Positions 1-20,816 of a DNA stretch of 38,255 bases are shown piece by piece. The position numbers and the translations under genes were made by a program. Source of the stretch: Chthonomonadaceae bacterium (GTDB lineage: Bacteria > Armatimonadota > Chthonomonadetes > Chthonomonadales > Chthonomonadaceae); the NCBI GenBank assembly GCA_035650735.1, contig DASRGZ010000152.1, forward strand, positions 1 through 38,255, given 5' to 3'. The notes beneath the pieces are model-generated. The model made no database searches. It was not told where the DNA came from and saw nothing but the letters and a program-made list of their open reading frames with translations. Each line of letters begins with the position of its first letter. Position 1 is the stretch's first letter.

Positions 1-2412
1 TACTTGAGGGCGACGATGTCGTTGGTGCCGCTGCCGAACGACTGGCCGGCGACGATGGCAAAGTCTCGCCGGTCGATGGCCAGCGCGTGGGCCGCGTCAC
101 GCTCGGAAAGAGGGCTGCCATAGTCACCGGCCCAGAAGACCTGCCCCGCCGGAGTATATCGGACGCAGTGAATATCCCGCTGTACGCTGTCCGGGGCCAC
201 GCCAGGACGGTTAACAGTCCACGTCAGCGTGGGATAGCCTTCGGCCGGGTGGCTGAGGACCAGGCATTTCCTCAGGCTCGCGCCCTCTAGAGCCATCTGC
301 TCCTCCATGCGCGCCCAGAGCTGGGTGCCGTGCCGGTCGTACTTGAGGAGCGCCACGTTCGGCGTCCGCCTGCCCTCGATCTCGTCCGACCGATCCCGCG
401 ACATAGACGCTGCCGATCCCGTCCACGTTGATGCTGCGCCCCTCATCCTGCGTGTGCGCTGGGCCGTCGAAGCGGCGTACCCAGAGCTCGCGGCCCGATT
501 TATCGTACTTGATGGTTAGGATGTCCGACCGGTCCCTGAGGTGCCGGTCGCCGGGAGCGTGGGCACAGCCCGTAACGTAGACCGCGCCCTCCGAGTCCAC
601 CGCGATTCCTGCTGGCGTCGCATCGGCATGGTCGCCCCCGCCCCACCGGCGCAGCCAGCGCACCGAGCCGTCGGGCCTATACCGCACCGTGAGGATGTCC
701 AGCTCTGCATCGGGCGCGGCTGAGCCGCGTGCCTCCAGGGTGACGCACAGGTCGCCGTCCGGTGCAAGCTCCATGTCGATCCGATCCGTCAGCGGCCCGG
801 CCCCATGCGGCTGGCGGTGCGCCCACTTCAGATCGCCGGCGGCGTCGTACTTGAGGATCACGAACTCGGATGCGGGACCAGAGCGGGCATCGCGGCTCCA
901 GCTTACGCCGGCCACATACACGTTGTCCGCTCGGTCTATACGAATCTGCCGAGCGCGGTCCTCTCCCTGTGCCGGCCCATCGTAGGGACGGACCCAGATG
1001 CGATGACCGTCGTGCGGATCAAGCTTTATCGTGACAAGGTCCAGGCCGCTCAGGCGCGTCGCGCCATTGCCCCCCCCGGTGAGCGAATCGCCCGTGACGT
1101 ACACGCTGCCGTCCGATCCGAGCGTGATGCCGCGCGCCCGATCCACATCATCGGCCAGCCCGTTGTAGCGCGCCTCCCAGATCTGTCTTCCGTTGGGGTC
1201 CAGCTTTAAGACCAGGTAGTCTACATCGTGCTCGGCGGTCTTCAAGAAACCGGCGATGTAGATGCAGCCGGCAGTGTCGGTCACGATGCTGGACGGCTCG
1301 CTGTCGCGGTCTCCGCCCTGCGGCGTATAGCGCCAGGCCCAGAGCCGCTGCGCCTCGGGCGCAACCCGACTCAAGCGCGCAGGGTTCGTTTGCGGCTTGC
1401 GCGCGCCGCGGCGCCAGGTCCCTGAGTACCGGATCAGCACGACCAGAAGCACGAGGAGCGCCAGGGCGGCAGCCGCGACCAGGGGCTGCGCGCGGCCACG
1501 GAGATGCCGGGACCTAGCGGGACCGGGGGCGAAGCGCCCTCTTGCGGGCGGGGGTTCCGGTACCGTGATCGGCGGGAGAGCGGCCGCAGCCGCCTCTGGT
1601 TCGCGATAGGAAGATTGTCGCGGGACCGGTTTCGGTCCTTTGAGCGGCGGGAGGTCAACAACGGCCGGGCTCTGTCGGATGGTATCGCGGAGCTGGCGCA
1701 CCGCAGCCGACGGCTTTTCGTCTAGCTCCTCCTTAAGGAGCCGCTCCAGCTCGGCATATTGGCGCATGGCAGCAGCGGGCTGCCCGCTCGCCGCGTAGGC
1801 GCGCATGAGCACGCAATGGGCCTCTTCGAGCAGCGGCTCTTTGGCGACCAGCCTGCGAGCCGTCTCAATAGCGCGATCCCACTCGGCGGCCTCCTCATAC
1901 GCACGGGCAAGCTTGAGAAGCAGGGCGCCGTGCGCCTCCGCTAACTGCTGACGCTCCAGCAGGATGAACTCCTCATAGAATCCGGGGAGCAGCGGCCCAC
2001 GGTAAATTGCATCGGCGCGCAATAGCGCTTCGATCCGTCCCTTCCAATCAGACGAGGCGCCAGCATCCGCAAGGGCTTGACGGAATTCCGACACGTCGGT
2101 CGTGATCCTGCCTGCGGCCAGCTGGATCGTCGCTCGGGTGGCGACAAGCAGCTCTTCGCCCGTAGCTTGCTTGAGAAGCCGACGGAGAGCGAAGAGTGCC
2201 TGCCGCAGCTTGGGGCGCGATTCGGCAGGATCTTCGTCCGGCCAGAGCAGCTCCAGAAGCGCTTCGCGAGCGTGCTGGCGCGTCGGATCGAGCAACAGAT
2301 AGGCCAGAAGGAGCGTGGTTCGGTTTGGCGGGACCTCGGAGGGCGGCCGGTTTGGCGCTGTGATTGCAATCCCACCGAGCAGCTGGAAGTAGACGAGAGG
2401 CGCATTTCCCAT
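1..2412 (-). pseudogene. SARP-type regulator (wHTH + BTAD) with a TM helix and C-terminal SBBP-like beta-propeller; frameshifted near 386-393; runs off the window start
   Basis: BTAD motifs (YRGPLLPGFYEEFILLERQQL, EPLLEEAHCVLMRAY), hydrophobic helix (LVAAAALALLVLLVVLI), repeats D..G.VYVTG / KYD..G...W. The repeats continue in another frame after a CCGA-CCGA duplication (NVALLKYDRHGTQLW...DIVALKY). Confidence 0.8.
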
Positions 2413-2589
2413 CGCAGTGCGGACGTTTGATCAGACAACCAGCGAACGTGGTTTCCATTGTTGCCTGGGCGTCTGCGCGAACTCCACAGGCGGCGTATGC
2501 CCTGAAGCCGAGCGCAGCCGCTTGTGGTTATAGACCCTTCCATTATACATCCTAATCTTTAGCTATATCAAGGAGAACGGAAGGTCTTT

Positions 2590-2618
2590 CCCCAATCCCA
2601 GGTCAGGCAGGGTTGGGG
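2590..2618 (-). terminator. GC-rich hairpin downstream of the deacetylase gene
   Basis: CCCCAATCC/GGGTTGGGG imperfect inverted repeat just past the stop; no clear U-tract. Confidence 0.3.
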
Positions 2619-2622
2619 GCGC

Positions 2623-3534
2623 TCAGCGGCCTCTTGCCGCCTTGATGGGGAGAGTAGGCGGCTGGCTCAGAAGCAGTTCGCTGACCGGCACGACCTGCGC
2701 GCCGATTTTGTCCAGATACTCAAAAATGCGCGGCAGGGCCTCCGCTGACCCCACGCAGGAGACGTGCATGAGCGTGATGTAGCCCGGCTTGACTTTGCGG
2801 CAGATGCGCTCGGCCACGAACGCCGCCGATTTGGGCTGGCCTACGCTATCGAGCGAGTCGAGCGTCCAGGCAATCGGCTGATAGCCCGCCTGTGCGACGA
2901 CGGCGCGGGTGCGCCTATCGCTGTCGCCGTAGGGAAACCGGAAGAGCGGCTTTGCGCCCCGTCCACACGCCTTGATAATGGCGGCCTCAGCCCGCTCCAG
3001 TTGGCTGCGTATTTCGGCGTCGCTCAGCCGGGTGAAATGCGGATGCGAATAGGAGTGGTTGCCCAGCTCCATGCCGGCGGCGGCGATGGCCTGGCACTCT
3101 TGCGGGAAGGTGGCGCAGAATTTGCCGGTGAGGAAGAAGGTCGCATGCGCCTTATGCTCGGCCAGTATCTTGAGGATGATCGGGACGGCCTTGGCGTCGC
3201 TGCCCGCATCAAACGTCAGCGCCACGCGCGGCGGCGCGCTCTGGCCTTCATAGAACTGGACTGGCGATGGCTTCCATTGCGCTAGAGGCGCGTTCGTGGG
3301 ATCAGGAGGCGCACTGCGGGGCGAATTCCGGGCGGAAACCTGCGGAGGGAACCGGGGCATAGCCTCTTTGTGGCCGCCCTGGCAGCCTGAGAGCGCCGCC
3401 AGAAGACCCAGCGACATTACGCAGGCGGCAATCCGCCGAACGCGAGCAAAGAAAGGGAGTCTGGCCGGCGCCAGGCTCCCCCTGTATGTGGCACGAATCA
3501 ACGCTGTCTTCCTGGTTATCAATTGCAATTCCAC
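2623..3534 (-). CDS. NodB-family polysaccharide deacetylase, probable lipoprotein; true start likely downstream of 3534
   Basis: ALTFDAG, ATFFLTG, GNHSYSHP, FRFPYG, LMH motifs; lipobox-like LAALSGC. Confidence 0.9.
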   Translation of the reverse strand: MELQLITRKTALIRATYRGSLAPARLPFFARVRRIAACVMSLGLLAALSGCQGGHKEAMPRFPPQVSARNSPRSAPPDPTNAPLAQWKPSPVQFYEGQSAPPRVALTFDAGSDAKAVPIILKILAEHKAHATFFLTGKFCATFPQECQAIAAAGMELGNHSYSHPHFTRLSDAEIRSQLERAEAAIIKACGRGAKPLFRFPYGDSDRRTRAVVAQAGYQPIAWTLDSLDSVGQPKSAAFVAERICRKVKPGYITLMHVSCVGSAEALPRIFEYLDKIGAQVVPVSELLLSQPPTLPIKAARGR

Positions 3535-3609
3535 GCTAGATTCGGTTAAAAGGGCAGTACCAAGCCAGCTTCCGCGTTAGTTTCAATTCCACGCTGGTTC
3601 GATCCAAAG
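3522..3609 (-). CRISPR. Orphan two-repeat CRISPR-like unit with a 27-nt spacer
   Basis: Minus strand: CTTTGGATCGAACCAGCGTGGAATTGAAAC (3609-3580), spacer TAACGCGGAAGCTGGCTTGGTACTGCC, degenerate copy CTTTTAACCGAATCTAGCGTGGAATTGCAAT (3552-3522). 30-nt length and ATTGAAAC 3' end are typical of Cas6-processed class 1 repeats. No cas genes in the window. Confidence 0.6.
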
Positions 3610-3625
3610 ATGGAAGGGCACTGTG

Positions 3626-5044
3626 CTACGGAGTCTGCGTTACTTCCTGCGCGGCCTGGGCGATGGTCTTGCCGTTCAGGCGGGCGCGCAGGAACTGGAG
3701 GGCTTTCTGCAACTGGACATCGTTGGTCTTGTCCTTGAAATCCTCCTCTTTCCAGTTCTTCGATTGCTTGACCTCGATATCGGGCACGATGCCGCCGGAG
3801 CCAGGGATCGGATCGCCATCCTCGTCGCGCTTGCGGTTGATGTCGGTATGCTTGGGCGTATAGTACTTGGCCGTCGTCAGGCGCAGGGCCGAGTGATCTC
3901 CCAATTGGAACAGCGATTGCACCAGCCCCTTGCCGAAGGTGCGCTCGCCCATGAGCGTGCCCACGCCATAGTCCTTGATGGCCCCGGCGACGATCTCGGA
4001 AGCGGAGGCGCTCATGCCGTTGGTCAGGACCACCATCGGCACCTGCCGATGGGTAAATTGCGCCTCCTTCAGCCGCATCGCCTGCTCCTTGCCTGTGCCC
4101 TCCTTGATGTAGACGACCGCGTTATCCAGGTCTTTGTTCTGGTCAGGCGGAATGAAGAGGCTGGCGACATCAATGGCGACGGTCAGCAGCCCGCCGGGAT
4201 TGTAGCGCAGGTCGAAGACCAGCGCGCGCATTCCCTGGCTCTCCAGGCTGGCAAACGCCCGCTCCATCTGCTCAATGCTTTTCTCGTTAAAATCGGTCAG
4301 GACGATATGGCCGATCTTATTCTCTTTATCCTCCATCCAGTACTTTACGACGGGCGGTTCGACCAGGGCACGCCGGATGGTGAAGTCCAACGGCGTCTTG
4401 CCGCGCATCACGCCAAGCCGGACGTAGGTGCCGCTCTTGCCCTTGATCAGGTTGACGACCTCGTTGAGGTCCTTGCCGAGGATGGGCTTGCCGTTGACGC
4501 GCACGATCACGTCGTCGGCTTTGAGGCCCGCCTTTTCCGCCGGGCCGGTTTCGATGGGTCGGACGACCTTGATGGCGCCGTTATTCGGCGGTTCCTGTTG
4601 CAGCAGCGCGCCGATGCCTTCAAAATCACCGCGCGTCGTCGCCTGCATCTGGGACCAATCGTCGGGGTTGAGGAAGCTGGTGAACTGATCTTTGAGGGTA
4701 TCCAGCATCCCCTGGATCGCCTCGTAGGTAAGCTGGCGCGTCTTCTTGGCATCAACGGGCGGGCCGTAATAGTCCTTTTTGAGCAGGTTTAGCGCGGTTT
4801 TGTAATCTTCCAGCGGATCGCTATTCTGCCCAGTATAGTCGCTGCCTTTCTCGTCGCCCTCCTGCGGCGCGAGCCAGGCAGTGAGAACGCGCCGCGCCAT
4901 GCGGGCGCGTTCCAGGCTGTGATGGCCCCAGATCTCATCGCCCGCGTAGCCTACCAGCACCGAGGCGAGAACCAGCCCGACGACGGCAGGCACGACCAGC
5001 AGACGCGAGAGAAGCGACCGAAACCCTCTTGATGATAGACGCAT
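3626..5044 (-). CDS. ctpA: Carboxyl-terminal processing protease, S41A family with PDZ domain
   Basis: GIGA PDZ loop, DLRYNPGG, catalytic SASASE and TFGKG; N-terminal hydrophobic anchor. Confidence 0.93.
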   Translation of the reverse strand: MRLSSRGFRSLLSRLLVVPAVVGLVLASVLVGYAGDEIWGHHSLERARMARRVLTAWLAPQEGDEKGSDYTGQNSDPLEDYKTALNLLKKDYYGPPVDAKKTRQLTYEAIQGMLDTLKDQFTSFLNPDDWSQMQATTRGDFEGIGALLQQEPPNNGAIKVVRPIETGPAEKAGLKADDVIVRVNGKPILGKDLNEVVNLIKGKSGTYVRLGVMRGKTPLDFTIRRALVEPPVVKYWMEDKENKIGHIVLTDFNEKSIEQMERAFASLESQGMRALVFDLRYNPGGLLTVAIDVASLFIPPDQNKDLDNAVVYIKEGTGKEQAMRLKEAQFTHRQVPMVVLTNGMSASASEIVAGAIKDYGVGTLMGERTFGKGLVQSLFQLGDHSALRLTTAKYYTPKHTDINRKRDEDGDPIPGSGGIVPDIEVKQSKNWKEEDFKDKTNDVQLQKALQFLRARLNGKTIAQAAQEVTQTP

Positions 5045-5118
5045 AGATTTCCTGACCCTATTTCCCACTCAAGTCCGGCCTGAGTCCCCCAGAATCGGAC
5101 AATATAGATTTATAGATT

Positions 5119-6501
5119 TCACGCTGAAACGTTCAGGGCCGCCAGGGCACGCTCCAGGGCGGCATCGGTACCGGAGGCGCCCGACGTCACGGCAATATCC
5201 GGCGTGACCCCTTGCGACAGGTCGGCGCCCTCGGTAGTGAGCAGCCTGGCGGTCGCCATCTCTACGCCGGAACCGTCCCGCAAGACCGTGAAAAGCTGGA
5301 GGATCGCATCCCCGAACGTGCGCGTGCCGATCACCTTCGCCCGGCCCGCGTCGCGCAGCGCCGCCGCCACCAGTTCGGAGAGGTTCGCCGTTCCTGAATC
5401 GACCAGCACCGCCAGCGGCACCTCCAGCGGCGACTTGGCGGGCGTGACCGTCAGCGGCTCGCGCCGGTTGGGTTTGCGCTCGATGGCGGCGACCTCGCCG
5501 CCGCGCGTCAGGCGCGCGATGAGCTTGAGCGCCGAGTCATAGCCGTTGGCGTCGGCATCCGCGGCGGCGCGCACCCCGCCCGGATTATCCCGCAGATCCA
5601 CGATCAGGCCCTTTAGTTGGCCCTGCGCCTTGTCCAGCGCGCGCTGGAATTCCTCCGTCGCCTTCGCGTTAAACAGGCGCACGCGCAGGTAGCCGACCCG
5701 GTTTGCCAGCGTCCGAAACTCGACCGGATGGACCTCCGTGAGAGCGGTCGTCAGGTCTAGCTTGAGGGGCGCAGGCTGACCGGCGCGCTCCACGGTCAGT
5801 TGCAGCGGCTTGCCTTCGCCGGCGCTAAGCAGCGTGAGGGCCTTGATAAGGCTATACCCCTTCTTGAACTTATCGCGTGCCTGTTTGAACTGCTCCTGCT
5901 TGGCTGTATCGTCCTGATTTGACGCTCGGATTCGGCCTGCATCCACCGCAATAGAATAGGCGATAATCCAGTGCCCATTGATTTCGGTGATATGATCTCC
6001 CGGCTGCAAACCGGCCTTTTCCGCCGGGCTGCTCGGCATGGTATCTACAACAGTCAGGTAGCGGTATTCTACATCGTCTTTTTTCGTTCTGGTAACGGTC
6101 AGCGCCGCGCCGATACCGTGGAAGTGCCCCGCCAGCGCCTCCTGCCGCGCCTGCCGCAGGGGCGGCTCCAGGAAGTTCGTCTTCGGGTCGTCCAGCGAGG
6201 CGAACATGCGGGCCAGCGCGCCGTGGCTCAACTGGGACTCGTTATTGATGCCCTCGACGTAGTCGCGCTGCACGTAGTCGAGCACGGTGGCGAAGACCTC
6301 GGAGGGGGAAGCGTCGGCGTCCTGGCCGTCGTCATCCGAGCTGCCGATGGCTCCGCCGCTGGAAGAGGCCGAAAGCAGGAAGGGCCGGATATGCTTATGT
6401 AAAGGCAGTGCATGACGCAGTTGACGCCCCCCATAAAAGCCGAGGGACACCGCCCCGCCCAGAAACATCACTATCAACAGTTGCTTGGCAGACCGAATCA
6501 C
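5119..6501 (-). CDS. S41/CtpA-like PDZ protein lacking the catalytic Ser/Lys
   Basis: GIGA and DLRDNPGG are present, but TANLSE replaces SASASE and TFGDA replaces TFGKG. GTG at 6501 is preceded by GGAGGA. Confidence 0.88.
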   Translation of the reverse strand: MIRSAKQLLIVMFLGGAVSLGFYGGRQLRHALPLHKHIRPFLLSASSSGGAIGSSDDDGQDADASPSEVFATVLDYVQRDYVEGINNESQLSHGALARMFASLDDPKTNFLEPPLRQARQEALAGHFHGIGAALTVTRTKKDDVEYRYLTVVDTMPSSPAEKAGLQPGDHITEINGHWIIAYSIAVDAGRIRASNQDDTAKQEQFKQARDKFKKGYSLIKALTLLSAGEGKPLQLTVERAGQPAPLKLDLTTALTEVHPVEFRTLANRVGYLRVRLFNAKATEEFQRALDKAQGQLKGLIVDLRDNPGGVRAAADADANGYDSALKLIARLTRGGEVAAIERKPNRREPLTVTPAKSPLEVPLAVLVDSGTANLSELVAAALRDAGRAKVIGTRTFGDAILQLFTVLRDGSGVEMATARLLTTEGADLSQGVTPDIAVTSGASGTDAALERALAALNVSA

Positions 6502-6944
6502 CGTTCTCCTCCACACCGGACACGCCCTATCAACGACGACAGCCGGCCCAGCGCTCGGTGCGCCCGCCGGAAAGCCGCCACTTGTCTCTATGTTTAAGTG
6601 GTTGGGACTAAGGAATAGTTCCCGATTTTGCGGCCCGCTGTGAGATTTCCTGTAGAGGGTGGGGCCTGGCCGCGAAACTTCTTCCAGTAAACAGGATAAC
6701 ACAACGCCCCGCAAAAGTCAACGCAGTCGGCAGCAGGAGTATCCTAACGGTAGCCGGGTACGGCTGTATGCATCCCTCATGAGAGGACAGGGAGTTGGAC
6801 TACCAGGCGATGTGCCTCGCGGCGTTCCCACGCAGCGAGACGGGCCAGCAGCCTCCTCACGCGGCCCGTGACGTCCCCTGGCTGCTGGCCCAGAGCAGAG
6901 GAGAGAATGGCAAGCGGGGATTTAGCGGGCAAATCGAGAAGATA

Positions 6945-8375
6945 TTAGAGGGCCTTCAGGAACGCCACGAGGTCCTGCTTCTCTTCCGCCGTTAAGCCGA
7001 TATGGAACCGCGTGTCGTAGAACTCGACGACCTCCTCCAGCGCGGCCGCAGAGCCGTTGTGGAAGTAGGGCGCCCGCGCGGTCAGCCCACGCAGCGCCGG
7101 GCCTTTGAACTTACCGATGTCGGCCCATTTGCCGGTAAGAAGCGCGCGGCCCGGATCGGTGGTGTAGATGAGCGCGCCGGTGGTACGGTTGCGCAGGGTA
7201 TAGAGCGGCAGGTCCGGCGTGCGCCGGCTCGCGTCCGATATGCCGATGTCCAGCGGTATGGACAGGGAATGGTTGCCGATGTTGGGCGTGTTGTGACAGG
7301 TGGTGCAGGTTCCTACTACCTCTTGTGGGCTGCCGAAGTAGGGATTGTCGTTGAGGCCCTTAACGCCGGTAATGCGAATGGGCTTGCTGATAAATAGCTG
7401 CTCGCCCCGCGCAATCGCCCGCCGGTGGGGATTGCGGGAGTTCGCCCACGCGGCATAAAGCTGCATGGAGTTGGGGTCGAACGGGCCATTCGGGTCGGCC
7501 ACGTTGTCATTGATGCCAATGTAGAACGGGAAGCTCGCCAGCGTTTCGGGACCGCCCAGCGCCCCCCGCGCCGCCAGATTGCCGGCCTTCCGATCCTCAC
7601 TCTGGGCCGTGTAAAGCCCCGTCTCGAACGCGACGATCTGCTCTTTTTGCGCCTCCGTGAGGTCCTGAGCCGCCTGCGCGTGGCCGGTCGTGGCGCCGTT
7701 GGCCTGGTGCATCAGATCGAAGAGCAGCGCAGCGACGTTGGGCGCCTCGCTTCCGCCGAGGGGCTGGATGCTCATCGGCTGAACGGTCTCACGGCCATCC
7801 CACATCACCGCGCTGAGGAACCGCAGGTTGGTGGCGGGAAGCGGCCTGCGGAACAGGGAGAGTTCCTTGGCGCTGGCGTAGCCGTATGGGTCGTCTACGG
7901 CGACCAGCTCAAACTCCGCATTGTCCGGGATGCCTATGCCGACGCGGATAAGGCCCTTGGTCAGCAGCATACTGTACGCCTTTCGCCGCGCCTCCACCGT
8001 AGAAACATCGGCGTTGGGGGAGTTGGAGCCGTCGTTGGTGCGGAAGAGCGGGTCGCGCCCTCTGGTGGCCTCAAACCGCTCCCGGACGTGCTCCGGCGTG
8101 ATGGACCAGCCGAAGGCGGGCTGGTGGCAGGTGACGCAGGCTCGTCCGTTGGTCCCTAGCACCTGAAAGAAGGGATTGCGGAGATCGATGGGGCCGTTCA
8201 CGCTGATGGTTCGTACCCCGCCGGCGTCGTCGGGGAACTCGCCCCGGGGCGGGCGCTGACCGGCATAGGATGCGGCCATACCAAGCTCTCCCAGTGTCAG
8301 GAGAGTAGCGATGGCGACCGCGGGACGGAACCTGGAAACGCGGGGTCGAGGCGTCCAGAAGAACGTAAGCTTCAT
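6945..8375 (-). CDS. Exported di-haem cytochrome c, MauG/bCCP superfamily-like
   Basis: CVTCH and CTTCH; GKFKGPALRGL..RAPYFHNGSA motif; signal peptide; AAGGAGG RBS. Confidence 0.85.
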   Translation of the reverse strand: MKLTFFWTPRPRVSRFRPAVAIATLLTLGELGMAASYAGQRPPRGEFPDDAGGVRTISVNGPIDLRNPFFQVLGTNGRACVTCHQPAFGWSITPEHVRERFEATRGRDPLFRTNDGSNSPNADVSTVEARRKAYSMLLTKGLIRVGIGIPDNAEFELVAVDDPYGYASAKELSLFRRPLPATNLRFLSAVMWDGRETVQPMSIQPLGGSEAPNVAALLFDLMHQANGATTGHAQAAQDLTEAQKEQIVAFETGLYTAQSEDRKAGNLAARGALGGPETLASFPFYIGINDNVADPNGPFDPNSMQLYAAWANSRNPHRRAIARGEQLFISKPIRITGVKGLNDNPYFGSPQEVVGTCTTCHNTPNIGNHSLSIPLDIGISDASRRTPDLPLYTLRNRTTGALIYTTDPGRALLTGKWADIGKFKGPALRGLTARAPYFHNGSAAALEEVVEFYDTRFHIGLTAEEKQDLVAFLKAL

Positions 8376-8694
8376 GGTGTCCTCCTTGCAGCCGAATAAG
8401 CCGCTCCACTACGGATGCGTCACTATCCTTCGAGAGTTGAAGTGGCTTGGGCCGCGTTACCATATCGCTCTGCGACGAAGGCGTGACGCAGGAAGAGTGT
8501 ATGGCGTCGCCGTAGAGCAAACGCAAAGGTGGCGTAATCTGCGCGACAAATGTGTGTAACAGGATGATAGAGCGATGAGAGCGCATCCGGTAGGGCGAAA
8601 GGTAGCAGATGGTTATCTTATTGGCTGCGGGAGGGAAAATATCATGCTAATTTTGCATGTTTCTTGCGATATTTTTATACTGCCCCCGTATACT

Positions 8695-15789: not shown

Positions 15790-16254
15790 ATGAAGAGCCT
15801 CAAAACGCTTCTGTACGTTGGTTTGCCTTCGGCCGCGCTGACGCTCTCCCTCTGGACGGCGGTGGCTCTCCAGAAGCCCAAAGCGCCCCCGCCCATGGGC
15901 CATCCGCACATGCAGGTTGCCCCCGGCGCTAGAAGGCTGCACAGTGAGCTGGAGCGCGTCAGCCAGGCTGCTGCCAGGAAGGGCCAGTATACCTGCTGCA
16001 TCAATCCGCCCTGCGAGTTCTGCGCCGTCCACATGGCCATGTGCCCCTGCGGGAAAAACCTCGCGGCGGGCAAGGCCGTCTGCCGCGAGTGTAAGGGCGG
16101 CTGGGACGTGGGCGAGGGCCGCATTCCGGGCGTGAACGCCGCCGAGGTGAAGGGCATGTCCGCCCAGCAGGTGGCGAGCATGATGAAGGGCCATATGGGC
16201 GGCGGCCATCGCGCCCCGCACCGCGCCGCCGGCCCTGGCGGAAGACACAGGTAA
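15790..16254 (+). CDS. Exported Cys-rich protein with His/Met-rich flanks, putative metal binder
   Basis: AAGGAG RBS, N-terminal hydrophobic segment, CC-x4-CxxC-x6-CxC-x10-CxxC (8 Cys), MGHPHM and MMKGHMGGGH. Confidence 0.85.
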   Translation: MKSLKTLLYVGLPSAALTLSLWTAVALQKPKAPPPMGHPHMQVAPGARRLHSELERVSQAAARKGQYTCCINPPCEFCAVHMAMCPCGKNLAAGKAVCRECKGGWDVGEGRIPGVNAAEVKGMSAQQVASMMKGHMGGGHRAPHRAAGPGGRHR

Positions 16255-16274
16255 CAGTAAACCGTCAAGCCATC

Positions 16275-16301
16275 GGGCCGGGCTGGCAAACGGCCCGGCC
16301 C
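16275..16301 (+). other. Strong intergenic hairpin without a U-tract
   Basis: GGGCCGGGCTG-GCAAA-CGGCCCGGCCC. Confidence 0.5.
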
Positions 16302-16341
16302 TGAGCTGCTCTGCGATCCAACCTTGCCGAGGGAGCCGCTT

Positions 16342-17115
16342 ATGTCCGCGTTCTCCTGGCCGGAAGTCCATGGCGCGCTGACCCATTTTCCGGTAGCCCT
16401 GCTGATCACCGCCTGCGTCTTCGAAATCGGGGCCGTCGTTTCTCAGAGACCGGCTTGGCGCACGGTGAGCTTCTGGCTGCTGGCAGCGGCAGTAGTGATG
16501 GCTTTGCCCACGCTGGCGGTCGGCTGGGTGGCCGGCGATACCCTTTTCGGCAAGACGCCGCGCCCGCCGGATATCTTCGTGCGGCACCGGGCCACTGCCT
16601 TTGCTACCTCGGGCCTGGCCCTGGCCTTACTTCTCTGGCGCATCGTCTCGAAGGATCGCCTGGAGGGATCGGCGCGGTGGGGTGCGGTGCTGCTGGCGCT
16701 GCTCGCCGCCGGAGGCGTGGGCTATACAGGCTACCTGGGGGGTCGGATGTTGTTTGGCAGCCAGAGCCAGGAGCAAGAGCACGCCGAGGAGCATGCCGAG
16801 GGGCACCGGGGCGCGCACGGGGAGGAACCTGCGGCCCCAGGCCAGCCACGCCCGGTAAGTCCCCAGTTGGCGGCAACTGGGCAGAAGCTCTTCCAGAGCC
16901 GCAACTGCCTCTCCTGCCATAAAATGAACGGCCAGGGCGGCACGCTCGGCCCGGATCTGACCCATGAGGGCCAGGCGCACCCGGATATGGGCTGGCAGAT
17001 CGCGCACTTAAAGCATCCCGACCAGGTACATCCCGGCTCGGTGATGCCCAGTTTCGCCTATCTTAAGCCCGAGGAGCTACAGGCATTGGCCGCTTTCCTG
17101 GTTACACGCAGGTAG
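16342..17115 (+). CDS. DUF2231-like four-TM protein fused to a class I cytochrome c
   Basis: HGALTHFP, TGYLGGRM, His/Glu-rich linker, CLSCH, GPDL, distal Met in SVMPSF. Confidence 0.85.
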   Translation: MSAFSWPEVHGALTHFPVALLITACVFEIGAVVSQRPAWRTVSFWLLAAAVVMALPTLAVGWVAGDTLFGKTPRPPDIFVRHRATAFATSGLALALLLWRIVSKDRLEGSARWGAVLLALLAAGGVGYTGYLGGRMLFGSQSQEQEHAEEHAEGHRGAHGEEPAAPGQPRPVSPQLAATGQKLFQSRNCLSCHKMNGQGGTLGPDLTHEGQAHPDMGWQIAHLKHPDQVHPGSVMPSFAYLKPEELQALAAFLVTRR

Positions 17116-17143
17116 CGTCACTCTCCTGATCAGGAGCGAGACG

Positions 17144-17701
17144 ATGAGCGATATCACGGCACGGGAACAGAGCCAGACCTCCCCGCAGGAAACCCATCAG
17201 AGCCGGCCCGCACAGCCCTCTCTTTTCGCCGGTTATGGCGGCGGCAAAGAGATGCCGCTAGGCGGTTACGCGGTCATTGCCGGGCTCTACGGCGCGGCGT
17301 TTGCAGGCTTCCTGCTGACAGCAAAGAAGGCGGATCGCCCTCTCCCGGAGCGGATAGGCCTCAAGGACATTCTGCTCCTAGGCGTGGCGACCCACAAGGT
17401 AAGCCGACTGATCACCAAAGACTGGGTCACCAGTCCCCTGCGCGCCCCTTTCACCGAGTACCAGGGCACTGCGGGAGCTGGCGAGGTCAAGGAGAAAGCG
17501 CGCGGCCAGGGGTTGCAGCGCGCGCTGGGCGATCTCTTCACCTGACCGTGGTGCATGGGGGCCTGGGTGGCCTCCCTGTTTAGCTACGGCCTGGTGCTCA
17601 AGCCGCGTCTGACGCGCCTGCTGGGCACGATGTTTACGGTAGAGGCGATCTCCGATTATCTCCAATTGGCCTACGAGGCCGCCAAAAAGCAGGAGAAGTA
17701 G
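17144..17701 (+). CDS. DUF1360 membrane protein with in-frame TGA (17543-17545); candidate selenoprotein with UxxC
   Basis: ATHKVSRLITKDWVTSPLRAPFT is DUF1360-like. The frame continues GDLFT*PWCMGAWVA... for 51 more codons with normal codon usage to TAG at 17699-17701 (185 aa). Confidence 0.8.
17546..17589 (+). promoter_or_regulatory. Bacterial SECIS-like hairpin
   Basis: Lower stem CCGTGG/CTACGG, upper stem GCA-T-GGGGGCC/GGCCTCC-C-TGT, apical loop TGGGT beginning 18 nt after the TGA. Confidence 0.65.
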
Positions 17702-17744
17702 CCGCGCGTCTCCCGCTCCCGGTTAACCTAACCCCGCGTCCCCT

Positions 17745-20462
17745 TTATGCCGCCAGTCGTACCGGGGCGGGCGCGGCGGCGGGTTGCGGCGCTCCTGCCG
17801 GACGGCGCTTCTCCGCCGCGCGCAGAAACGCCTGCGCAATGGCCGGGTCGAATTGCGTGCCGATGTTGGCTTTGATCTCCCCGAGGGCCGTGTCCCAATC
17901 CATTCCCCGGCGGTAGGGCCGGTCGGTGGTCATGGCGCTGAAGGCGTCGGCGACGGCCAGCAGCCGCCCCAGGAAGGGCGTATCCTCGCCTTTGGTCCCA
18001 TCCGGGTAGCCCTGCCCGTCCCAGCGCTCGTGATGCGAGCGGACGGCATCCACGATCTCCTCCATGCCCGGCACCGCCCCGACAATGAGCGCGCCCAGGC
18101 GCGGGTGCCGCTTCATCACCTCGTACTCTTCCGGCGTGAGCCGACCGGGCTTGTGCAGGATCTCGTCCGGCACGCCGATCTTGCCGACGTCGTGCAGCAG
18201 CCCGCCGATGCGGATAAGCCGCAGCGTCTCCTCCGAGACGCCCAGTTCCTCCGCCGTCCAGAGCGCATATTCGGTCACGTCCTCGGAGTGTCGGCGCGTA
18301 TAGCGATCTTTGTTGTCTACTGCCGTCACCATTGCGTCCAAAACATTGAAGGAGCCGGAAGCGGCGCGCAGCCGGCGGTTGGCACGCTGCATTTCCGTCG
18401 TGCCGTGGATGCCACTTTCCGATTGCTTGGCCGTGTAGAGGTTGTTGTCGGCGATAGTCAGCAGCTCGTGCCGATTGACGCTATCCTCCGGGAAGGCGGC
18501 AATGCCGAAGCTGAGGGAAACCGGAATGGTGCGCCCCTCCCCGGAACGCCGGTAGCCCTGCTGGAGCATTCGTGCTTGAAGCCGTTCGGCCACGGTCACG
18601 GCCCCTTCCGCGCCGGTGTCCGGCAAAATCAGGAGGAACTCATCCCCGCCGTAGCGGCCCGCATAATCGGTCTCCCGACAGGTCTCGCGCAGCGCCTGCG
18701 CCACCCCTCTGAGCACCTGATCGCCGACCGGGTGCCCATAGGTGTCGTTAAACATCTTAAAGTTGTTCAGGTCCATCATGACGACGGCTAACGGGCGCTC
18801 CAGCTGATACGCGCGCGCTAGCTCCCGATCCAGATGCTGATGGATGGCCCGGTGGTTATAGAGGTTCGTGACCGGGTCCTTGTCGGCGGCTTCCAGGGCG
18901 GCGCGGTGGCGGTAGGCGTTCTCCAGGGCGGTGCCCACTTCCAGGCCGATGCTCTGCAGCAGCCCCCACTCGGTGGGGTCTATGCTGGCCTCCCACCGGA
19001 CGATGCCGATCATTCCCAGCGCCTTCTGCTGCCAGATCAGGGGCGCGCGCAGGCAGACGCCCGGCTGCGTTTCGGTCGCGGTCGGCAGGGGCAGCAACTC
19101 CACCTGATCGCGCACGGCCTGCCGGGCCAGAAAGGCCAATATGCTGGTATGTTCCTCCAGCCCTTTATGCAGTGGGAGGGTAGTGACCTTACTGCTCCCT
19201 GCCGACTCATCGGAGAGCCAGACGGCCACCGCCTCCGCCTGAAACGCCCGCTGCGTATGCTCCAGGGCGGCGGCGAGAACATCTTTGACCTGGAGCGTGT
19301 TGTTGACCGCCTGGGTCAGCCCCAGCAGCGCGCCTAACTGCTGCGTTCGCTGTTCCACGCGCTGCTCCAGCCCCTCGTTCAGGGCGCGCAACTGCGCCGC
19401 CAGCTCCTGGTTCTGCTGCAACTGGTCGCTCAATTGCCGCGTTAGATCGCGATTCTCCAGCAGCGTAAATACCTGCCGCAGCAGCACCAGCGCCATCATT
19501 CCCAGGCCCACAAAGAACATTGCCGCACTGATACCGCCCCCGTCCAGAGAATCCGCCGTAATGACCACGGTCAGCGAAATGCCTGCGGCGGCGTAGGGCG
19601 CGAACAGGCGCACCAGGCTGCGCGCCTGGGCGCTCTGGACGTGCAGCGCGTTGGCCTGCGGCTGAATGCCGCGGTGCCGGGCCCAGAGGAGCGATAGGCT
19701 CGCATAGGCAATGAGCAGCGCCCCGAAGGGCCATCCCCAATCGTACCAGGAGCCCATGTGGTAGCGGCTGAGGAAGCGGTAGTAGGTATAGGGCGTATCG
19801 GCAAAGGCCCAGGAGATGATCCCGCAGGCCAAAAGCCCCAGCGAGCGGCGCAGGTGCCGGTCATCCGACATACTGTTGAGCAGGACGAGGGCGCTAAACA
19901 GCGAGGCCACATCGCCAAGCGGGTAGCTGACGCTGACGATCTTGCCCAGCAGCGCCAGGCCGGAATGCCGCCACAGCTGGCGCAGCAGGAAGTGCCAGAC
20001 CAGCACGCCGATGCTGCTGGTGAGGATGGCGCTGTCGAAGAGCAGGCGCGCGCGCCCGGCGCGCGGCATACTGCGGAAGAGCAGCAGCACGCCGCCGATA
20101 ATGAAGGGAAAGACGCTGACCCAGGCCACATCCGCCCAGCTAGGGCAGGGCACCGGGCCGCCGCACACGTTGGCATAGTAATAGTAAGCGAAATCGCCTG
20201 CCAGATAGGCGAAGCAGGCCATGCCGATCAGCAACCAGGCTAACCCTTGGGCGCGCGTGGAATGCCGCCCACGCCGGGCATAGACGAGGCAGCAGACCCC
20301 CGCAAAGGTATGGGGCGAGAGATGCAAGAGCGAAAAGATGGTCTCAAAGGTGTCCTTGCTGCCCGGACGAACCAGCAGCATGAACAGAAATCCAGCAACA
20401 TAGGCTATGGAACAGAGGATGCAGACGCGCTGGAACAGAGAGCGCCCCTTCAGCAAAAACAT
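17745..20462 (-). CDS. Multi-TM sensor with GAF, GGDEF and HD-GYP domains
   Basis: RETD...RYGGDEF, LLHDVGK, HHERWDGQGYP; many N-terminal TM helices. Confidence 0.92.
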   Translation of the reverse strand: MFLLKGRSLFQRVCILCSIAYVAGFLFMLLVRPGSKDTFETIFSLLHLSPHTFAGVCCLVYARRGRHSTRAQGLAWLLIGMACFAYLAGDFAYYYYANVCGGPVPCPSWADVAWVSVFPFIIGGVLLLFRSMPRAGRARLLFDSAILTSSIGVLVWHFLLRQLWRHSGLALLGKIVSVSYPLGDVASLFSALVLLNSMSDDRHLRRSLGLLACGIISWAFADTPYTYYRFLSRYHMGSWYDWGWPFGALLIAYASLSLLWARHRGIQPQANALHVQSAQARSLVRLFAPYAAAGISLTVVITADSLDGGGISAAMFFVGLGMMALVLLRQVFTLLENRDLTRQLSDQLQQNQELAAQLRALNEGLEQRVEQRTQQLGALLGLTQAVNNTLQVKDVLAAALEHTQRAFQAEAVAVWLSDESAGSSKVTTLPLHKGLEEHTSILAFLARQAVRDQVELLPLPTATETQPGVCLRAPLIWQQKALGMIGIVRWEASIDPTEWGLLQSIGLEVGTALENAYRHRAALEAADKDPVTNLYNHRAIHQHLDRELARAYQLERPLAVVMMDLNNFKMFNDTYGHPVGDQVLRGVAQALRETCRETDYAGRYGGDEFLLILPDTGAEGAVTVAERLQARMLQQGYRRSGEGRTIPVSLSFGIAAFPEDSVNRHELLTIADNNLYTAKQSESGIHGTTEMQRANRRLRAASGSFNVLDAMVTAVDNKDRYTRRHSEDVTEYALWTAEELGVSEETLRLIRIGGLLHDVGKIGVPDEILHKPGRLTPEEYEVMKRHPRLGALIVGAVPGMEEIVDAVRSHHERWDGQGYPDGTKGEDTPFLGRLLAVADAFSAMTTDRPYRRGMDWDTALGEIKANIGTQFDPAIAQAFLRAAEKRRPAGAPQPAAAPAPVRLAA

Positions 20463-20816
20463 TATCTCAAGCTCCGTCAGGCATTTCGTAAAGGCCAACC
20501 GTCTTCCGTGGTCGTTGGCACAACTCCGTGAACGTGTTTCCACAGATCCCGGCAATATTACACTGGTTTCAGCCTTTAGGAAGGAACCGGACAGGAATCC
20601 CATTTCATTGCCGCGCCTGGAAGAGGTCGGCGCGAGGAGGCGATGGATGAGGGAGCCTTAGGGAGTGGTTTCCTTAAATCAGAGCGTAGTGGAGTGGGAA
20701 TAACGAGCGTAACCGTGGGAGAGGCAGGGCAGAAATCGAATTAGAGCGCCGAAGAGAGCGCTGTTGCAGGTTCCAGGGGAGAGGTTTTCGTGGCTAGAAG
20801 AAGGGCAGAAATCGTA

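Follow-up and report, generated by a model that had tools for sequence, protein, structure and literature searches.

Among predicted and verified bacterial selenoproteins, those most like the one considered here carry a UxxC motif, in which selenocysteine (Sec) stands where CxxC has its N-terminal Cys, and have their SECIS element within the open reading frame; thioredoxin, glutaredoxin, DsbA-like and DsbG-like forms are entered in Table 1 of a 2026 review (PMC13188914). In those families, as at the present locus, homologues with Cys are far more numerous, and a stem-loop that fits the consensus SECIS lies directly 3' of the UGA (PMC13188914). The bacterial SECIS model given there asks for a loop of 3-9 nt with a G in one of its first two positions and an upper stem of 4-16 bp, placed 16-37 nt from the UGA, with a minimum free energy (MFE) of -7.5 kcal/mol or lower (PMC13188914). 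Unlike the UxxC selenoproteins tabulated in that source, the protein described here, a member of the DUF1360 family, is without a thioredoxin-fold domain and is a mostly helical membrane protein that matches no solved structure. A further point of comparison is provided by selenoproteins that handle soft metals, in which, according to the same review, one member of a short Cys pair located at or inside a membrane helix is replaced by Sec (PMC13188914). They have no sequence relationship to the DUF1360 protein, and a metal-related role for the latter is speculative.

VKOR and DsbB are membrane thiol oxidoreductases with a CxxC motif at the end of a helix, and they resemble the DUF1360 protein in being small, helical and membrane-embedded and in having a conserved CxxC where a hydrophobic helix begins; no similarity in sequence or structure was detected, however, and DUF1360 has only one CxxC pair. 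The closest relatives of all are the Cys-containing members of DUF1360 (PF07098, function unknown), a family that includes a Bacillus subtilis protein. These match the protein considered here over the whole domain, in length and in their invariant residues, the C-P-x-C site among them. They differ in that the first Cys of the motif is here encoded by TGA, and in that most of them are without the SECIS-like hairpin that stands at a fixed distance from the TGA in this gene.

The window, by which we mean the whole 38,255-nucleotide stretch that was analysed, corresponds to contig C152 of genome G000, an assembly of 224 contigs and 6.52 Mb that is 97.6% complete. Conventional gene calling with table 11 closes an open reading frame (17144-17545) at a TGA at 17543-17545 after 133 codons, but when that TGA is read through the same frame continues as ...GDLFT-U-PWCMGAWVASLFSYGLVLKPRLTRLLGTMFTVEAISDYLQLAYEAAKKQEK up to a TAG at 17699-17701, and the full gene (17144-17701, + strand) then has 185 codons with the putative Sec codon at position 134. 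A Shine-Dalgarno-like AGGAG (17132-17136, + strand) lies 7 nt 5' of the ATG at 17144. The 185-residue product has a single Pfam match, to DUF1360, which covers residues 78-177 and all 102 profile positions (E 5.4e-34; score 116.7 bits, cut-off 21), so that the domain spans the TGA. The original prediction, that the called frame stops early and that its continuation completes a membrane domain with a T-U-P-W-C motif, is thus borne out in its coordinates and its motif alike. The TGA (+ strand) occupies the first position of that motif, and the TGC at 17552-17554 (+ strand) encodes Cys137, which is invariant in the homologue alignment and is the likely resolving partner in the U-x-x-C pair.

A search of a collection of 5.8 billion proteins returned 1,512 matches at E <= 0.001, and the best 120 of these all carry PF07098 and are mostly 170-185 residues long. 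Among the matches listed, the closest full-length homologues have the same length and are 50-65% identical, the best being 62-65%; the sole 100% match among them is the 133-residue open reading frame of this very locus (P0002), recorded on five contigs. When the read-through product was aligned with 28 proteins taken from these 120 (29 rows in all, U being scored as C), every one of the 28 homologues had Cys at the TGA column (C134); P135 and C137 are likewise invariant, and T133 is conserved in at least 90%. This agrees with what is expected of DUF1360 proteins, a conserved C-x-x-C, mostly T-C-P-x-C, where the third helix begins. C-P-x-C is also carried by all 35 Cys forms, more distant and drawn from two phyla, that a motif-based regular expression retrieved; an exception to the motif is the homologue L019, with C-S-D-C.

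TGA occupies this column in six more DUF1360 genes, all of them distinct: three lie in genomes that encode SelA and SelB (G053, G466 and G645) and three on metagenome contigs (L126, L099 and L123). Together the Sec forms span two phyla and at least four lineages of the tree described below. Among the genomes of 61 relatives, a homologue is present only in G000 and G053, each with one TGA; the G053 protein has T-U-P-W-C and is 59% identical to that of the window. A 401-genome sample of the window's phylum gave 19 matches, with TGA at the site only in these same two genomes. Candidates set aside there include G118, whose one TGA lies upstream of the gene and whose protein reads I-C-P-W-C, and G218, a match with three TAG codons at E 4.6e-4 that we treated as spurious. 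Of the 20 matches in an equivalent sample of 401 genomes from the second phylum, two (G466 and G645) have TGA in that position; their motif is T-U-P-S-C, and the proteins are 33-36% identical to that of the window; the Pfam model found the same two TGA forms among 25 matches in this sample.

A DNA pattern aimed at the motif occurs at six places in the genomes of 185,579 species, one of which is real (the G053 contig) while the other five are not DUF1360, and a pattern of the same kind occurs at 94 places in metagenome contigs. When all 100 candidates (94 metagenomic, six genomic) were scored with a hidden Markov model of the homologue alignment, five true DUF1360 genes were left: L084, which is identical to the window, L028, which is the G053 contig, L126, L099 and L123. 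The remaining 95 are not DUF1360, and 19 of these matched the model in the motif only, at less than 15 bits. Because the pattern required P-W-C it was blind to T-U-P-S-C, and the seven distinct Sec forms are accordingly a lower bound.

We built a tree of 68 DUF1360 sequences, masking the column that distinguishes Sec from Cys. It takes in the seven Sec forms, 35 locus-derived Cys forms and 26 proteins from the database; L019 and L025, which the motif expression had missed, were left out. Sec forms fall beside Cys forms: L028 groups with P0034 (support 100), L123 with P0080 (97) and L099 with P0007 (93), and L136 and L139 make up a clade of their own (support 100). Parsimony counts six changes between Cys and Sec, and well-supported branches alone force at least four. 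Decay would not be expected to produce such repeated switching at one column; it is the pattern to be looked for when a selenoprotein family is genuine. Alternation between Cys and TGA at this position had been put forward as a check on the original prediction, and it is found, with the nearest relatives in the tree carrying Cys; the opposite outcome, a TGA unique to this assembly, is not what we see.

Sec decoding depends on a dedicated machinery, and G000 encodes it: SelA (453 bits), SelB (recognized by its wing-3 domain, 67.8 bits), a tRNA-Sec with anticodon tca at C198:18921-19018 and, about 1.5 kb from this tRNA, SelD. All four genes on whose presence the original prediction was staked, selA, selB, selC and selD, are therefore accounted for. 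The selD frame itself holds one in-frame TGA, at G-U-A-S-K, which we take to be the usual Sec/Cys position of SelD; this enzyme would thus be a selenoprotein in its own right, which argues that the Sec pathway is in use. SelA and SelB are also found in G053, G466 and G645, that is, counting G000, in four of the four TGA-bearing genomes that could be searched.

Immediately after the TGA, and within coding sequence, the RNA can form a SECIS-like stem-loop in two tiers (17546-17589, + strand), identified both by folding and by a scan with the bacterial SECIS model. Its lower stem pairs 17546-17555 with 17577-17589, its upper stem of 7 bp pairs 17557-17563 with 17569-17575, and its loop, UGGGU (17564-17568), begins 18 nt after the UGA and has G in its second position, just as had been predicted. 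The scan was an exhaustive local search by our own script applying the constraints in the legend of Fig. 2 of the review (PMC13188914), and the hairpin of the window falls within them, with its UGGGU loop, 7-bp upper stem, spacing of 18 nt and energy of -26.0 kcal/mol. A 71-nt stretch folds at -31.1 kcal/mol, only z = -0.73 against dinucleotide shuffles, so the energy of the hairpin alone is unexceptional for a sequence this rich in G+C; against codon shuffles, the 45 nt after the TGA score z = -3.2 to -3.8. The evidential weight of the hairpin comes not from its energy but from the comparison of Sec with Cys forms.

In that comparison, all seven Sec forms pass the SECIS scan, at -12.6 to -26.0 kcal/mol and with a spacing that is always 18-20 nt, whereas 13 of the 35 Cys forms pass, with spacings scattered over 16-36 nt (one-sided Mann-Whitney p = 2.6e-5, not corrected for relatedness, so that the value overstates the evidence). 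The Cys controls are mostly more distant than the closest Cys homologues. Folding of 45 nt yields, in all seven Sec forms, a stem-loop whose loop sits on the codon of the invariant Trp141; the loops read UGGGU, GGGU, UGGAU, GGU, UGGAUC and UGGAUU. Since the UGG of the loop is fixed by that codon, the position of the hairpin is set in part by the protein. The mean MFE over these 45 nt is -18.5 kcal/mol for the seven Sec forms and -12.8 for the 35 Cys forms (one-sided p = 0.011, which likewise overstates the evidence). A hairpin that fits the model appears in the global MFE structure of 60 nt in only four of the seven Sec forms, against three of the 35 Cys forms.

Different lineages build the stem from different codon pairs, GGG-GCC/GCC-UCC in the window, GGA-CCC/GGU-GCC in L099 and GCC-CCG/GCG-GGG in L123. 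Of the covarying hairpin that had been expected in relatives, the hairpin itself is clear and the covariation less so: all seven Sec forms have a model-conforming hairpin at a matching distance from the UGA, but covariation in a fixed register is weak. The RNAalifold consensus of the seven Sec forms reaches only -5.79 kcal/mol with a covariation term of +0.55, and 6 of 12 pairs have a compensatory change. This weakness arises because the stems shift register between sequences, and for that reason we relied on scans of the individual sequences instead. A search of 17300-17800 with cmscan (E up to 10) gave no match to an Rfam bacterial SECIS; bacterial SECIS elements are too varied for a missing Rfam match to count against Sec decoding. 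Two other Rfam matches, to SNORA77 (26.2 bits against a gathering score of 42, minus strand) and to P31 (13.5 bits), fall below threshold and are unrelated chance matches.

Taken with the Cys alignment, the machinery, the other TGA genes and the intact 3' coding sequence described below, the recurrent hairpin supports the original proposal that T-U-P-W-C is decoded with Sec. On these sequence grounds the UGA at 17543-17545 is almost certainly read as selenocysteine, and the decoding very probably yields a functional, full-length DUF1360 membrane protein of 185 residues. By what is the standard bacterial route, SelB carrying Sec-tRNA(Sec) would bind the stem-loop right after the UGA (upper stem 17557-17575, loop UGGGU) and deliver Sec to the ribosome in place of release factor, and the product would have T-U-P-W-C where relatives have T-C-P-W-C.

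A full-length protein could also arise by read-through that inserts something other than Sec, through a near-cognate Trp- or Cys-tRNA or some other form of suppression, and would then be free of selenium. Sequence by itself does not tell which residue is inserted, and the weak fixed-register consensus of the hairpin leans the same way. What is recoded, however, is precisely the position held by the first Cys in an invariant CxxC, as in known Cys/Sec pairs; SelA and SelB accompany the TGA in every genome where they could be sought; and the hairpin lies within the published SECIS constraints in all seven Sec forms. Nor is TGA generally reassigned, as the G053 homologue uses it as an ordinary stop. 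We give this alternative only a slight chance.

Slighter still is the chance that the gene is truncated, a pseudogene in which the TGA is a nonsense mutation and from which a 133-residue fragment, or nothing, is made. Table-11 calling does stop at the TGA, and the protein collection holds only the 133-residue form (P0002). Yet the frame stays open for 50-86 codons past the TGA in the five loci that hold the 3' end of the gene, and in L126 up to the end of the fragment; the frames of the Sec forms end where those of the Cys homologues end; and the ratio pN/pS downstream is 0.30-0.72 in five of five pairs, which indicates that the part after the TGA is under purifying selection. The decayed sequence that would have spoken for a dead gene is thus found in none of the Sec forms. 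A nonsense mutation also sits poorly with a TGA at the same column in seven distinct genes of at least four lineages, with Sec machinery in all four of the Sec-form genomes searched and with a hairpin that recurs at a fixed distance, and a product of 133 residues would lose both invariant residues of the CxxC as well as two conserved helices.

That the locus encodes two polypeptides, an N-terminal one of 133 residues and a C-terminal one of 48 restarting at the ATG at 17555, has a negligible probability: such an ATG (Met138) does stand 9 nt after the TGA and an ORF is called at 17555-17701, but the equivalent codon is ACC in L028, ACA in L126, ATT in L123 and CTG in L099, so that no start is conserved, no Shine-Dalgarno motif is evident within the 9 nt, and the split would delete P-W-C although every Sec form conserves its codons. 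That TGC or TGT was misread or misassembled as TGA, for which one base would suffice, can be set aside with equal ease. Across 17100-17760, contigs assembled from sequencing runs of three studies, two on soil from 2017 and one on a mine from 2024, are identical at a depth of 11.1-13.5; one of these contigs may be the source of this assembly, and run X7 covers the stretch only in part. A metagenome contig of 86 kb is likewise identical, and independent genomes carry the same TGA.

Read as a selenoprotein, then, the DUF1360 protein would represent a further bacterial UxxC family, new to the selenoprotein lists searched, and an unusual one, since it is an integral membrane protein with no known function. 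The NCBIfam models, those for selenoproteins included, give no match to it (E up to 0.1), and DUF1360 is not among the nine new families of deep-Sep. Neither DUF1360 nor PF07098 appears in the text of the review, its table of prokaryotic selenoprotein families, known or predicted, included (PMC13188914), or in the BSepDB paper (111 families) and one of its supplements; other supplements may still list the family. The papers found to mention DUF1360 do not deal with selenoproteins of this family. Within the selenoprotein literature so covered, the original statement that the family had not been characterised as a selenoprotein stands.

New bacterial selenoprotein families are reported regularly, and the kind of finding is no surprise; its use lies in annotation and in what it may say about the function of DUF1360. 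The family has at least 1,512 members in the collection searched and no known function, and its Sec forms make a role testable. Annotation pipelines cut such genes at 133 residues, as in P0002, and a model that flags Sec would correct records in at least two phyla. An integral-membrane family would also be added to the bacterial selenoproteome, where most of the families in Table 1 of the review appear to be soluble, and Sec use would be documented in a soil and mine lineage, probably of the Armatimonadota.

Natural replacement of Cys by Sec is a strong sign of a catalytic, redox-active cysteine, and its occurrence in DUF1360 marks C134 and C137 as the likely active site. An AF2 model of the protein (pLDDT 82.4, pTM 0.68) has helices at residues 39-63 and 73-92, a beta-hairpin at 104-119, and further helices at 124-133, 135-152 and 154-184. 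In this predicted structure U134 caps the N-terminus of the hydrophobic helix 135-152. Reactive residues in redox CxxC motifs typically occupy such a position, and on account of that placement U134 and C137 may be read as a selenenylsulfide/selenol-thiol redox pair at a membrane interface, or possibly as a pair that binds a metal or metalloid. Going by sequence and model, we consider a redox role for the motif about as probable as its absence. A sequence-profile search of the PDB found no match, and neither did Foldseek against the PDB at E <= 0.001; the best wide Z in VIA-align was 4.9, too low to carry meaning for helical proteins, with no VKOR or DsbB chain listed. Counts of charged residues give an ambiguous membrane topology.

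The DUF1360 gene is the third of three close-packed genes on the + strand. The first of this putative operon (15790-16254, + strand) encodes a Cys-rich protein of 154 residues with a hydrophobic N-terminus and no family match, and a 76% identical homologue heads the cluster in G053. The second (16324-17115, + strand), which ends 28 nt upstream of the DUF1360 gene and is its likely operon partner, encodes a fusion protein that joins a DUF2231 membrane domain to a c-type cytochrome (PF09990 and PF00034). G053 keeps these two genes, the fusion at 56% identity, and has between them and DUF1360 a VKOR gene and a gene of the FAD-dependent disulfide reductase type. VKOR genes adjoin DUF1360 in three of 38 loci, namely L099 (a Sec form), L022 (a Cys form) and G053.

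A neighbourhood that includes VKOR fits an extracytoplasmic or membrane redox role, as far as gene order can indicate one. It is possible that the protein works with extracytoplasmic redox proteins, which here could be the cytochrome c-DUF2231 fusion and the Cys-rich protein, and in related loci VKOR and the FAD disulfide reductase; judged on gene order, a partnership with VKOR or the cytochrome is nevertheless doubtful. More tentative again, and rather unlikely, is a broader idea: DUF1360 proteins may form a class of membrane thiol/selenol oxidoreductases that has yet to be described, or may carry soft metals or metalloids. In either case their helix-capping CxxC or UxxC would exchange electrons or ligands with partners outside the cytoplasm, for example VKOR, the exported Cys-rich protein and the fusion of DUF2231 with cytochrome c. 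DUF1360 might even be tied to the handling of selenium or another chalcogen itself. In the window's phylum SelA is present in 16 of 18 DUF1360 carriers against 108 of 201 sampled genomes. In G053 the DUF1360 gene is followed by a distant GH1-like gene and then, two genes downstream, by the gene for an ArsS-type radical SAM (seleno)protein. A GH1-like gene adjoins DUF1360 in three of the 38 loci, L009, L022 and G053.

The genome that holds the window carries, on contig C198 (18921-21512) and thus outside the window, both a tRNA-Sec gene (anticodon tca) and selD, which lie about 1.5 kb apart. The selD gene has an in-frame TGA of its own, at G-U-A-S-K, so that the selenophosphate synthetase of this genome is itself a selenoprotein. 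SelA nearly always accompanies DUF1360 in the sampled genomes, being found in 32 of the 34 that carry the Cys form and in all four (4/4) with the Sec form. Within the window's phylum it is present in 16 of 18 DUF1360 carriers against a background of 108 of 201 genomes (Fisher p = 0.002, relatedness uncorrected). The link is not universal, as B. subtilis carries DUF1360 and is not known to have a Sec system. The second phylum sample was reached from genomes labelled Sulfomarinibacteraceae and Chloroflexota alike; as Sulfomarinibacteraceae belong to the Acidobacteriota according to the NCBI taxonomy, at least one of these labels conflicts with the GTDB placement.

The distribution of DUF1360 is patchy: a search of 36 further genomes from the window's own family did not detect it, and among 22 from the sister family only one gave a match. 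Its closest relative comes from a metagenome (L126, 74% identity). A distribution this uneven suggests horizontal acquisition.

Two genes lie upstream of DUF1360 on the same strand (window 15790-17115). One encodes a Cys-rich protein of 154 aa with a hydrophobic N-terminus and the motifs CC..PPC.FC and MCPCG, for which a search of Pfam and NCBIfam returned no match; the other encodes a DUF2231-cytochrome c fusion. Both have counterparts in G053, another genome with a Sec-form DUF1360 (76% identity for the Cys-rich protein and 56% for the fusion), where they head the cluster that contains it. That cluster (2333-8595 of locus L127, G053:C162:3000-14000) continues from the Cys-rich protein and the DUF2231-cytochrome c fusion through VKOR, an FAD-dependent disulfide oxidoreductase, the Sec-form DUF1360 and a distant GH1-like protein to the arsenosugar radical SAM (seleno)protein ArsS, which scores 450 bits vs a cut-off of 300. 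The best models for the oxidoreductase are PRK06370, lipoamide dehydrogenase and MerA, each scoring below its own cut-off.

The distant GH1-like gene directly adjoins DUF1360 in three loci, each from a different family (L009:163-1470, L022:3-998 and L127:6350-7606), with weak Glyco_hydro_1 matches that fall near or under the cut-off. The T-U-P-S-C Sec form of G466 has, immediately upstream and in the opposite orientation, a gene whose product contains tandem MerR-type HTH domains (L136:715-1467); this neighbour might point to regulation by metals or redox state. In the window itself, DUF1360 is convergent with a gene for a 952-aa membrane protein with GAF, GGDEF and HD-GYP-type (HD_5) domains (17745-20603, minus strand), the two stops being 44 nt apart.
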